Of a DNA stretch of 43,763 nucleotides, positions 10,585 to 18,715 are shown piece by piece. The position numbers and the translations under genes are program-made. The notes beneath the pieces are model-generated. The model had not been told where the DNA came from. It made no database searches and was given only the letters and a program-made list of their open reading frames with translations. The stretch is from positions 1-43,763 of the forward strand of contig CAYRRR010000005.1 in the NCBI GenBank assembly GCA_964426755.1, read 5' to 3'. The first letter of the stretch is position 1. Every line of letters starts with the position of its first letter. The DNA comes from an uncultured Candidatus Saccharibacteria bacterium. Its GTDB lineage: Bacteria; Patescibacteriota; Saccharimonadia; Saccharimonadales; JAGQNJ01.

Positions 10585-11613
10585 GTGCATATTAATGACT
10601 TTGATTACAAGTTGCCACAGAGCAAGATAGCTGTCCATCCGCCTGCTCAACGCGGTAAAAGTAAGCTTCTGATACTTAATAGAGATACCGGTAGTATAAG
10701 TCACAAAACATATACTAAAATGTGCGAATTTGTTCGTCCGGGAGATGTGGTAGTTCTTAATGACACTAGGGTGATAAAAGCTCGTCTGCTTGCAACTTCA
10801 GAAGATGGCAAAAAACGAGAATTCCTGCTACTAGAACGACATTCTCAAAATCTTAACACACACCGCTGGAAAGTACTCTACAAGGGCAAGGTTAAGGCGG
10901 GCCAGCTATATAAGGTTAATAAGGCGATTATTGCGGTAGATGCTGTTGAAGCTCATGGAATTGCTGAAATCTCGTCTGATGATGATTTATTAGCGCTCAG
11001 CGAGCAGGCCGGACATGTACCCTTGCCTCCGTACATACACAGAGAAGATACAGCTGAAGATACCTTACGCTACCAAACAGAGTTCGCTCGAGAGGTTGGC
11101 TCTGTCGCAGCGCCCACGGCGTCTTTAAATTTGACTCAAGAGCTCATCAATCAAATTAAAGCTAAGGGGGCGAACATTGCTTATCTTACCCTCCATGTAG
11201 GCATCGGAACCTTTTTGCCCATTCGCGTTAATATCATAGAGAATCATAAAATGCATAGTGAATACTTTGAGATACCTTCACGTACAACTGAGATGATACA
11301 AAAAGCTAAGGCAAGTGGTAATCGTGTTATCGCAGTCGGTACTACCGTTACCCGCACCCTTGAGCACTGTGCACCGCAAATTTTATCACAAAAACCTTCT
11401 GCCCTATCAGGAGAAGCCGATATTTTTATCTACCCTGGATACAAATTCAAAGTAATCGATGCTCTCGTCACTAACTTCCACGCTCCTAAAACGACCGTTT
11501 TAATGCTAGCAGCTGCGTTTGCGGGCTGGAACAACCTCAGGCCTGCCTATGAAGAAGCACTGGCACGTGACTATACATTTCTCTCATACGGCGATTCAAT
11601 GCTTATACACTAA
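10585..11613 (+). CDS. queA: S-adenosylmethionine:tRNA ribosyltransferase-isomerase
   Basis: 'DFDYKLP', 'VLNDTRVIKARL', 'PLPPYI', 'GSVAAPTA', 'LTLHVGIGTF', 'TNFHAPKTT', 'FLSYGDSM'. Confidence 0.95.
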   Translation: MHINDFDYKLPQSKIAVHPPAQRGKSKLLILNRDTGSISHKTYTKMCEFVRPGDVVVLNDTRVIKARLLATSEDGKKREFLLLERHSQNLNTHRWKVLYKGKVKAGQLYKVNKAIIAVDAVEAHGIAEISSDDDLLALSEQAGHVPLPPYIHREDTAEDTLRYQTEFAREVGSVAAPTASLNLTQELINQIKAKGANIAYLTLHVGIGTFLPIRVNIIENHKMHSEYFEIPSRTTEMIQKAKASGNRVIAVGTTVTRTLEHCAPQILSQKPSALSGEADIFIYPGYKFKVIDALVTNFHAPKTTVLMLAAAFAGWNNLRPAYEEALARDYTFLSYGDSMLIH

Positions 11614-12212
11614 TTATCGAATAAATCTTCTTTTCGGCTATCAATGTAATCAAGTAATTCTTTATACCACCGTGCAACCACTGGATGTGCAGACACCTTC
11701 TCGAGCATTTCTACTGCTTTCTCACGATGCATCTCATAGCTAATATTATTCTTTCTCCAGAAATATCCATCTGCTTCAACAATCATTATCACTGCTAATA
11801 ATTTATCAAGCGCATACACGAAACGAGACTCTTCATCTTCCTGAGCCTCATAAAGTAATATTGCTCTCTGTAGGCCAGGAGTTGCAATAAACTCAATACC
11901 GATCTTTTCAATTGCAGCCTCTTCTCGTTCTGCTTTTGTCTCACGCCCCACCCTATCCTAAACAGAGGTGTCGCCGGCATACAGTTCAGGTAAATCATGG
12001 ACAGTTGCATAATAAGTAATCTTGCCCGGATCCAATCCCAATTTCTCACCGAGTGCCATACCAACGAGCGTCAAGGAATAAGAGTGCTCTGCATCATTTT
12101 CGGCACGGCCCTCTGAATATGGCCACGGAATTGCGCGCTCGATTTCTGCAAATGGAACATAGGCACTATGAACCAAATGAGTAACATCTTCTAATAATAG
12201 TTTTTCTTGCAT
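11610..12212 (-). pseudogene. HD-domain (YfbR-like 5'-deoxynucleotidase family) gene interrupted by an in-frame TAG at 11958-11960
   Basis: ATG at 12212 gives ...ENDAEHSY...TVHDLPELYAGDTSV*DRVGRETKAERE...DKL. The two track ORFs are one frame separated by a single TAG. Confidence 0.8.
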
Positions 12213-12223
12213 TGACTTCCTTT

Positions 12224-12300
12224 TGGTCGGGGTGACAGGACTTGAACCTGCGACCTCACGGCCCCCAGCCGTACGCGCTAGCCAACTGCGCCACACCCCG
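12224..12300 (-). tRNA. tRNA-Pro(GGG)
   Basis: 77-nt cloverleaf CGGGGTG...CACCCCG-ACCA; anticodon loop CTGGGGG; T-loop TTCAAGT. Confidence 0.95.
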
Positions 12301-12350
12301 ATAAGGTAAGTTTACTACAGATTATCAAATGTACGAGCCGCTCGGTCCTC

Positions 12351-12504
12351 ACGGTCACCTTCGGCGACCCCGTCGCAACTTCTTTCAAAACAAGTTTTGA
12401 AGAGTTGACTCCCTTGCGGATTGCCACCGGCAATCCTCACCCCAGCCGTACCCGTATGTCCAACTGCGCCACACCCCGTCGTCAGAATCGACGGTCGCCT
12501 TCGG
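12351..12504 (-). repeat. degenerate 5'-half copy of tRNA-Pro within a hairpin-rich element bounded by 14-nt direct repeats
   Basis: 12460-12478 and 12440-12451 are exact copies of tRNA-Pro segments. ACGGTCACCTTCGG (12351) and ACGGTCGCCTTCGG (12491) lie 140 bp apart. Confidence 0.75.
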
Positions 12505-12589
12505 AAAACTACATTTTCATCTACGTTATAGTCGCTTCTTCCTCTCAAATTTGCAAATCCTCTCGCAAATTTGTATTAGACCGTAATCT

Positions 12590-12722
12590 AAAAACCGGGC
12601 CATCACCCTTGATTAATCTGATAAATCTAAGTGGGTTCTCTCAAGCAGTTACCACGGTAGCTACTGTATATAAGATCCCTATCAGAAGCTGTTAGATAAT
12701 CATTGATGGGCGATGACCCAGC
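12590..12722 (-). ncRNA. rod-shaped small RNA, 6S-like candidate
   Basis: TATAAT at 12734-12729. The first 15 nt GCTGGGTCATCGCCC pair with GGGTGATGGCCCGGT, followed by a U-tract. Further internal helices are present. Confidence 0.6.
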
Positions 12723-12750
12723 ACTTACATTATACGCCCTGACCGGGTGA

Positions 12751-13377
12751 CTAGCCTAGCAAAATCTCAAAGAAAAAGGCATTCACAAAACTTACTATGG
12801 GAATTAATACAGGGAATAGAATGAACATGAAGAGAAAAATTCCAGCTAGCCCAAAAGCTTCGATTTGCTCCATTACTCTTCTAAGCGGTTCAGGCGCTAC
12901 CGCATAGAGCACACGAGAACCGTCCAGTGGCGGAAACGGAATCATATTAAACACAAACACCGCAACATTAATTTGTAAAAAGAGTGCTACGGCTTCATAT
13001 AAGTCTGTACCAATTGCAATTGAAAAGATCCTGATCAGTGCAGCTGCTACAAAAGCAAGCAATAAATTGCTTAACGGACCAGCAAGACCCACCATTGCCG
13101 CACCAAACTCCCCGCCGCGTACGCGGTAGGGATTGAACGGTACCGGTTTTGCAATCAAGAACGGGGGCAGGCCTAACAGTAAAAGCACTAAAGGAAGCAA
13201 AATCGTTGTAAAAGGATCAATGTGTTGAAGGGGATTGAGCGTTAACCTTCCGAGGTCTTTAGCAGTAGTATCACCCAGCCAATGCGCTGCAAACGCATGC
13301 ATTGCCTCATGAAAGCTCAGTGAAATTATTATACTAACCAATATTATCGCAATTGCGTTTATGCTAAATCCGTCCAT
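12751..13377 (-). CDS. site-2 protease family (M50) Zn metalloprotease
   Basis: HEAMH and NMIPFPPLDG motifs. Start moved to ATG 13377 (MDGFS), which follows TGT-TATACT. Confidence 0.9.
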   Translation of the reverse strand: MDGFSINAIAIILVSIIISLSFHEAMHAFAAHWLGDTTAKDLGRLTLNPLQHIDPFTTILLPLVLLLLGLPPFLIAKPVPFNPYRVRGGEFGAAMVGLAGPLSNLLLAFVAAALIRIFSIAIGTDLYEAVALFLQINVAVFVFNMIPFPPLDGSRVLYAVAPEPLRRVMEQIEAFGLAGIFLFMFILFPVLIPIVSFVNAFFFEILLG

Positions 13378-18529: not shown

Positions 18530-18556
18530 AAGGGTTGGTCGGACTCACCTCCGACG

Positions 18557-18574
18557 TGTTGGGCGGTACAGGAT
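18557..18574 (-). repeat. displaced copy of the tRNA-Val 3' end (att-like)
   Basis: GGGCGGTACAGGAT at 18561-18574 is identical to 18720-18733; the ACCA end reads AACA. Confidence 0.8.
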
Positions 18575-18715
18575 ATCGCCCATTGGGCTCTTCCCTGCGG
18601 TGCTCGAAATAACTCTGAACAAGCTCAATTACTTCTGCGCTCCTCGTTCACCGAACCTTTGCCTCGAATCAATACGATCGACCAGTTTCTATGCAGCCGA
18701 TGGCTCCGCAGAAAC

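Follow-up and report, generated by a model that had tools for sequence, protein, structure and literature searches.

A small structured repeat lodged in partial tRNA copies beside tRNA genes of Saccharibacteria, a candidate for an undescribed protein-less family

A partial tRNA repeat next to an intact tRNA classically marks an integrated element, and Williams is said to have placed, in 2002, integrase sublocations at T-loop and anticodon-loop positions. The 178-bp tyrT repeats of E. coli, with the rtT RNA, are copies of the tRNA 3' end that lie downstream of the tRNA gene and are co-transcribed. Rickettsia palindromic elements, about 100 nt long and stably folded, are found inside functional genes of a reduced genome, their mover being unknown. 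In the present work, a stretch of 43,763 nucleotides (the window) from an uncultured Candidatus Saccharibacteria bacterium, whose genome is referred to as G000, was analysed; upstream of its intact tRNA-Pro(GGG) gene, a partial copy of the same tRNA carries a folded core, here called E, which together with the surrounding tRNA parts forms a module (Table 1).

E modules resemble attL/attR partial tRNA repeats and cis-mobilisable elements in that a partial copy lies beside a working tRNA, in their loop junctions, and in the islands present at the same loci. However, E has no linked integrase, its folded core lies within the repeated stretch of tRNA, where the crossover would be, copies of the 5' part occur as well as copies of the 3' part, an antisense copy of the site is added, and the islands at E loci use a junction at the CCA end instead. 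With PATEs (derived from IS200/IS605) and REPIN/RAYT, E shares the character of a short, hairpin-rich, strand-specific and protein-less repeat, and a likeness to insertion at short single-stranded-DNA motifs without classical target duplication. In contrast to E, those systems need a Y1 (HUH) transposase, which is absent from G000 and from the genomes richest in E; moreover, E does not end in a matching pair of subterminal hairpins, and it is accompanied by a duplicated part of its target. Size, stable fold and a reduced genome are common to E and the Rickettsia elements, but the latter stay in a working gene product, whereas nearly all copies of E occupy tRNA loops of spare partial copies. 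The tyrT/rtT arrangement is alike in that copies of tRNA ends are repeated beside a tRNA gene; it is, however, a single locus of tandem units with no folded insert, while the E family spans many tRNAs and genomes. Finally, tRNA introns (bacterial group I; archaeal bulge-helix-bulge, at non-canonical positions) are likewise inserts in the anticodon, D- or T-loop. A spliced intron is nevertheless excluded for E: its deletion, in seven junction variants scored with ARAGORN, gave a full tRNA in one of 104 copies (a tRNA-Lys of G040) and none in the other 103, and 86 nt is far below group I size. Full-text searches of the literature gave no description of the element.

Table 1. Parts of the tRNA-Pro(GGG) locus and their positions in the window.
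Feature	Position	Strand	Basis
Intact tRNA-Pro (anticodon GGG), CCA encoded	12224..12300	(-)	ARAGORN; Rfam tRNA 60.3 bits
Spacer 5' of intact tRNA-Pro, with -10-like hexamer TGTAGT at 12319..12314	12301..12330	(-)	Four orthologous modules aligned
Degenerate antisense 'clamp' ACCGAGCGGCTCGTAC	12331..12346	(-)	Family-wide antisense segment adjoins short flank
Short 3' flank CCGTGAGG = tRNA-Pro positions 40-47	12347..12354	(-)	Exact match
E core, 86 nt, three hairpins	12353..12438	(-)	Model R1 and covariation
E hairpin 1	12436..12418	(-)	
E hairpin 2	about 12413..12372	(-)	
E hairpin 3	12369..12353	(-)	
Partial tRNA-Pro copy, positions 1-38	12440..12478	(-)	Exact blocks 1-19 and 27-38
Different dispersed leader repeat (GAGAGGAAGAAGCGAC ... 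GACCGTCGATTCTGACG)	12479-12560	(-)	Own-genome matches; abuts position 1 of tRNA-Pro copy

An earlier note on this DNA, made from its letters, had described an upstream copy of the 5' part of tRNA-Pro with exact matches of 19 and 12 nt, and both were recovered: positions 1-19 of the tRNA at 12478..12460 and positions 27-38 at 12451..12440, with a decayed D-arm (its 3' half) between them at 12459..12452. The copy stops at the anticodon-loop GG, reading CTGGGG and then T-GAGG, and E follows G37. On the far side of E, the tRNA sequence is rejoined in CCGTGAGG, which completes the anticodon stem closing E and shares its first two C with hairpin 3; as the note had also observed, T-arm and acceptor 3' strand are missing 3' of this segment. 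Neither ARAGORN nor Rfam RF00005, even at an E-value of up to 10, called the partial copy, the intact tRNA at 12224-12300 being the only one returned. The same tRNA was the sole Rfam match, both at the gathering threshold and, over 12150-12800, at E-values of up to 10, with no intron or ribozyme model, which excludes a known RNA family. The intact tRNA-Pro(GGG) begins 53 nt past E on the same strand. Where the window spacer has TGTAGT the orthologous Pro modules have TATAGT, and a strict sigma-70 scan of 12301..12330 gave no match. The window clamp contains CGTAC, able to pair with GTACG in the 5' flank; this is a remnant, and the pairing in this copy is at shuffle level (duplex energy z = -0.17).

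Of the hairpins named previously, all three pairs are present (GGATTGCC/GGCAATCC, CTCTTCAAAAC/GTTTTGAAAGAAG and GGTCGCC/GGTGACC), although the conserved unit has three hairpins and not four or five. The 14-nt direct repeat (13 of 14 identical, at 12351 and 12491, 140 nt apart) likewise exists, as does the twofold occurrence of ACCCCGTCG. However, the 14-nt repeats do not flank an element of about 140 bp, as had been thought; the conserved unit is the 86-nt core, 12438..12353. A target duplication was rejected as their origin, since the 3' strand of hairpin 3 accounts for one of them and the 3' end of the separate leader repeat for the other.

The leader repeat has further matches in its own genome, on contig C44 before tRNA-Arg and on C15 and C1. 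Genuine tRNA 5' ends are abutted there by the C44 copy and, in other genomes, by the copies at tRNA-Lys in G001 and G040 and at tRNA-His in G021. The sequence at its 3' end, GAAGGCGACCG, is similar to the 3' strand of E hairpin 3 and can pair with CGACGGGGTCGCC within E. A third leader motif, GATGAGAAAAACCGTAGGTTTGTCTCAT, lies directly before tRNA-Lys(UUU) on C6, tRNA-Ile on C29 and tRNA-His on C48, and also before tRNA-Pro(UGG) in G006.

Folded alone, the sequence at this locus is unremarkable (z = -1.4), neither strand reaching significance; the structure of E is established by comparison of copies. A MAFFT alignment of 29 copies yielded a consensus of three hairpins with 32 pairs, 23 of which show compensating double changes, and was the source of covariance model R1, to which the window E matches with 109.7 bits (E-value 7e-30) over 12340-12445(-). 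When 104 distinct copies were aligned by fitting to R1, 97.4% of stem cells paired, compared with 30-48% after sliding the partners by 1-3 columns, and both sides had changed in 27 of 32 pairs; the independent MAFFT alignment gives the same picture. Within hairpin 3, 89 of 104 copies have G·U at one pair, which indicates that selection acts on the fold of the tRNA-sense strand, in RNA or single-stranded DNA, and not on a duplex protein site. The T that precedes GAG forms a further covarying pair (U:A in 92 copies, G:C in 7) with an A in the linker from hairpin 1 to hairpin 2. In the window this T is 12439, part of the E fold, and its covariation implies that the core starts there. Adjoining hairpin 1 there is likely a tandem G·A internal loop, a common protein-binding motif. 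The core measures 86 nt in most copies (range 85-89, with one exception of 99 nt), and a well-formed fold is kept in all of them.

A BLAST search with the window insert detected a second site in the same genome, on contig C29 and 3' of tRNA-Ile; fragments of the tRNA-Ile T-arm flank it, and all three hairpins show compensating changes. Among 61 relatives, more than 150 matches to the insert were obtained, mostly adjoining tRNA genes. With model R1, four solid copies are found in the window's own genome (at Pro-GGG, Ile-GAU, Val-UAC and Gln-CUG), together with a fifth, weak relative beside 5S rRNA (14.5 bits, E-value 0.18). Within the same order, 44 of the 61 relatives possess E, with 0-16 copies per genome, and the remaining 17, some from the same genera, have none at an E-value of 0.001 or below; outside that order, E was detected in none of about 190 sampled genomes (201 were sampled across the phylum). 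All genomes other than the window's own are samples. A protein encoded near E in the window has its best relative in an uncultured Candidatus Saccharibacteria bacterium, and the taxon names used here rest partly on that one match. The copy-rich ones are G021 (16), G028 (14), G032 (13) and G016 (12), with G011 and G060 also within 10-16, and across the family more than 20 tRNA species and three loops are used. The search of the own genome and its relatives thus reveals a core that is multicopy and present across the order. The earlier proposal of a tRNA-targeting micro-element or a tRNA-mimic RNA is supported in part, by copy number, covariation and tRNA linkage, but its boundaries and flanking repeats were wrong.

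Throughout the family, GG precedes E, which occupies a loop of a partial tRNA copy, and the 5' border falls between ...GG-T and GAG. In T-loop copies, GTGAC-C precedes the 3' border and GA(A/G)TCC follows it, so that E takes the place of TTC in the T-loop. The T-loop is the usual site; the anticodon loop is used in Pro-GGG, Leu-UAG and Glu-CUC, and the D-loop in others. The long flank of the partial copy terminates exactly at a mature tRNA end (position 1 or CCA), and the other side ends just past the stem closing E. Beside this short flank there is usually, whichever loop is used, a reverse-complement copy of the uninterrupted site, the clamp, whose pairing with both flanks is only moderately above that of shuffles (family mean z about -1.7). 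In the upstream type, to which the window copy belongs, positions 1 to x of the tRNA are followed by E, the short flank and, 35-70 nt later, the intact tRNA. In the downstream type, the end of the intact tRNA lies 66-92 nt before E in most modules (24-39 nt in three), and past E the tRNA resumes at x+2 and runs to the CCA end. A -10-like hexamer (at least five of six matches to TATAAT) stands 3-24 nt before the tRNA in 22 of 29 upstream-type modules, compared with 22% of shuffles, and an intrinsic terminator directly 3' of the intact tRNA in 33 of 45 downstream-type modules. An intact cognate tRNA was located within about 100 nt of most analysed copies, on the same strand in all but one of those, which confirms the linkage to tRNA genes. 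At one locus (L014), E lies with identical layout in the antisense strand of a tRNA-Phe, which points to an origin at the DNA level and not to insertion into tRNA molecules.

The sole full-length tRNA interrupted by E is a tRNA-Lys(UUU) in G040 (L043, G040:C2:68500-75500). An identical intact tRNA-Lys with its own downstream module is situated 3.6 kb upstream, the two E cores are identical, and the two tRNA-Lys copies are separated by a two-component system and a GNAT gene.

The Pro(GGG) module is common to G000, to G001 of the same genus, and to G028 and G047 of other families. These orthologous modules have the same junction and show compensating changes in hairpin 1; tRNA blocks 1-12 and 26-38 are kept, and the D-arm between them drifts freely. 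Orthologues spread across families and carrying compensating changes show that the window copy is old and that its fold has been maintained. For the family at large, 10 of 74 cores share the tRNA species with their nearest relative and 5 of 74 share the genome. Core identities between loci reach 0.95 (the Ile copy of G000 and the Met copy of G001 are 94% identical), and upstream and downstream types both occur at the same tRNA species in different genomes. Nearest relatives at other tRNAs or in other genomes, together with both types at one tRNA, indicate that cores were copied between loci. Near-identical pairs of E at two different tRNAs of one genome were not seen, and there is thus no sign of recent jumps. 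Comparison of G000 with G001, and of G015 with G008, G018 and G021, did not yield a clean pair of filled and empty alleles, nucleotide synteny stopping at the tRNA or at contig ends; in E-free relatives, the tRNA has a terminator after it or directly adjoins a gene.

Two enzyme families were profiled against E copy number, the Y1 transposase (PF01797) and reverse transcriptase (PF00078). The Y1 HUH transposase had no match in G000, G021, G028, G032, G016, G011 and G060, and reverse transcriptase none in G000 and the genomes richest in E; neither correlates with the number of E copies. Their absence excludes an IS200/IS605 miniature element on the one hand and, on the other, a retro-copy that needs a resident reverse transcriptase (retron, DGR or group II). 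Searches of IMG/VR (with two patterns), GenBank phages and PLSDB plasmids did not find E.

The explanation we lean towards, tentatively, is that E constitutes an undescribed family of small protein-less structured repeats, confined to one order of Saccharibacteria, which would have spread through DNA copying into tRNA-gene loops containing GG, a working tRNA being left each time, and whose window copy would have been vertically inherited. According to this hypothetical scenario, (i) the family would have spread among tRNA loci through DNA-level copying; (ii) this copying would use GG(T)...C microhomology at exposed tRNA-gene loops; (iii) a functional tRNA would be left behind, either rebuilt or spared; and (iv) host replication or recombination functions would probably serve in place of a dedicated transposase. 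We infer a step that would yield the partial copy, the fold-back and the intact tRNA. In the window, E would be transcribed within the tRNA-Pro leader and then freed by RNase P. Continued selection on the fold suggests that the single-stranded form has kept a role, in spread or in the host. The proposal is weakened by the fact that no known transposition chemistry explains how a tRNA is duplicated or spared, by the absence of Y1 and reverse transcriptase from G000 and the richest genomes, by the absence of copies from the phage, plasmid and viral collections, and by the fact that neither near-identical pairs within one genome nor a clean pair of filled and empty alleles came to light.

Close to this DNA-level reading stands a second one, which we consider a realistic if less probable possibility, an attachment-site remnant being less likely than either. 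Here the modules would be host-used RNAs tied to their cognate tRNA, with E as a folded scaffold or protein handle on a tRNA-derived stem; an exact tRNA part and an antisense clamp would be fused in one molecule that acts on tRNA maturation, turnover or protection, in cis (in the precursor) or in trans. It is favoured by a very strong strand-specific structure with its conserved G·U pair, by the extra covarying U:A pair beside the likely tandem G·A internal loop, and by Pro orthologues kept over three families with compensating changes. That the tRNA blocks 1-12 and 26-38 are conserved around a drifting D-arm argues for selection and not gene conversion. The modules are placed within tRNA transcription units or next to them, accompanied by -10 boxes and terminators; no mobility enzyme was found among those profiled (Y1 and reverse transcriptase), and up to 16 copies are retained in genomes of 0.8 Mb. 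A fold kept everywhere, with compensated orthologues in very reduced genomes, fits a working RNA better than dead selfish DNA. However, the presence of E is patchy, 17 of 61 relatives (same genera included) being without it, which suggests that the family is dispensable. Furthermore, tRNA species, loop and side all differ among genomes, the copy at L014 is antisense to a tRNA gene, and the clamp pairing is moderate over the family (mean z about -1.7) and no better than in shuffles for the window copy.

For signs of integration scars, loci in G040, G033, G028, G001 and G004 were inspected. In G004 (L133/L134, G004:C3:87200-109500), a 20.7-kb island between tRNA-Gln and its downstream E module carries genes for a large serine recombinase, an MmeI-type restriction-modification enzyme (one protein for both restriction and methylation), a KAP NTPase, helicases and a ParB-methylase, and in G001 (L129, G001:C1:304400-306400) a 0.78-kb cassette with a single ORF occupies the same place at tRNA-Gln. 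Both inserts join exactly after the tRNA-Gln CCA, with their own ends ...GCTCAGCCA, and leave the downstream E module intact, so that E is not their attachment site. In G040, a 3.4-kb segment lies between the two E-bearing Lys copies. Such islands and segments at module loci, the partial tRNA repeat beside an intact tRNA, and T-loop and anticodon-loop positions that match the reported integrase sublocations are consistent with the modules being leftovers of site-specific integration, that is, attL/attR-type repeats of gene-less cis-mobilisable mini-elements with E as an arm beside the crossover. We regard this as unlikely, because the G004 and G001 junctions are at the CCA end with E untouched, E lies within the would-be core and does not flank it, the window copy is a 5' part and not a 3' part with no recombinase nearby (the adjoining genes encode a peptidase M50 and an HD-domain protein), and more than 20 tRNA species and three loops would require many target switches of one element. 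At the tRNA-Pro locus, no element with a recombinase gene lies between the tRNA and its partial copy, and the suggestion that the locus is the scar of a larger integrated element gained no evidence.

Far more speculatively, and with little probability in our view, E and the tRNA arms could together form an RNA or single-stranded-DNA device aimed at one tRNA or its gene: a new small catalytic or protein-recruiting module with a four-way fold, for which clamp and tRNA part would provide the address, and which would insert into or act on exposed GG-containing tRNA loops without encoding an enzyme. A decayed tandem tRNA-Pro duplication with chance hairpins, or an assembly artefact, is hardly credible and was rejected: the D-arm of the copy is indeed decayed and single-sequence folding is not significant, but E is neither unique nor devoid of covariation, with hundreds of copies and strongly covarying pairs, and the Pro(GGG) module has been assembled independently in four genomes (the window's own and at least three others, across three families), which also disposes of the doubts that the earlier note itself had voiced.

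The genomes of Saccharibacteria are among the smallest and most streamlined in bacteria, yet up to one third of their tRNA loci bear an add-on of about 190 nt. In our view, few small folds outside known RNA families covary as strongly as the E core. As selfish DNA, if that is what it is, E would represent a new way to occupy essential single-copy tRNA genes non-lethally, apparently without an enzyme of its own; if it is a working RNA, a new class of tRNA-linked RNA. Since many copies of E are found at contig ends, the repeats may break assemblies at tRNA loci, and such breaks could help to explain missing tRNAs in Saccharibacteria bins. The modules also mark spots where islands and cassettes accumulate.

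Several other features of the window and its genome were recorded. At 18540-18715 (-) in the window, about 150 nt of hairpins separate tRNA-Val(GAC) from a downstream ATCCTGTACCGCCCA, a copy of the tRNA's own end from T-loop to acceptor, in a layout of the downstream type; the filler differs from E, has no match to R1, and contains GCGCAG ... CGAGCAC. On contig C25 (5478-5590, minus strand) of the same genome, the 5S rRNA and its terminator are followed by a 14-nt antisense copy of the 5S 3' region, a hairpin with the apex AAAACTTGTTTT as in E hairpin 2, a sense copy of the last 18 nt of the 5S and a second terminator. Short contigs of this genome (C14, C23, C32, C50, C61 and C62) appear, from snippets of their sequence, much richer in G+C than the rest of the bin and may be foreign and mis-binned. 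Downstream of tRNA-Pro, the HD-domain gene (11610-12212, minus strand) is split into ORFs of 84 and 113 aa that match the N- and C-terminal parts of PF13023, possibly as a frameshift or pseudogene. At 10585-11613 (+), the window encodes queA (queuosine biosynthesis), whose best relative is in another Saccharibacteria genome (62%); as all of the next relatives are from Firmicutes, with 44-46% identity, the gene may have been acquired horizontally.
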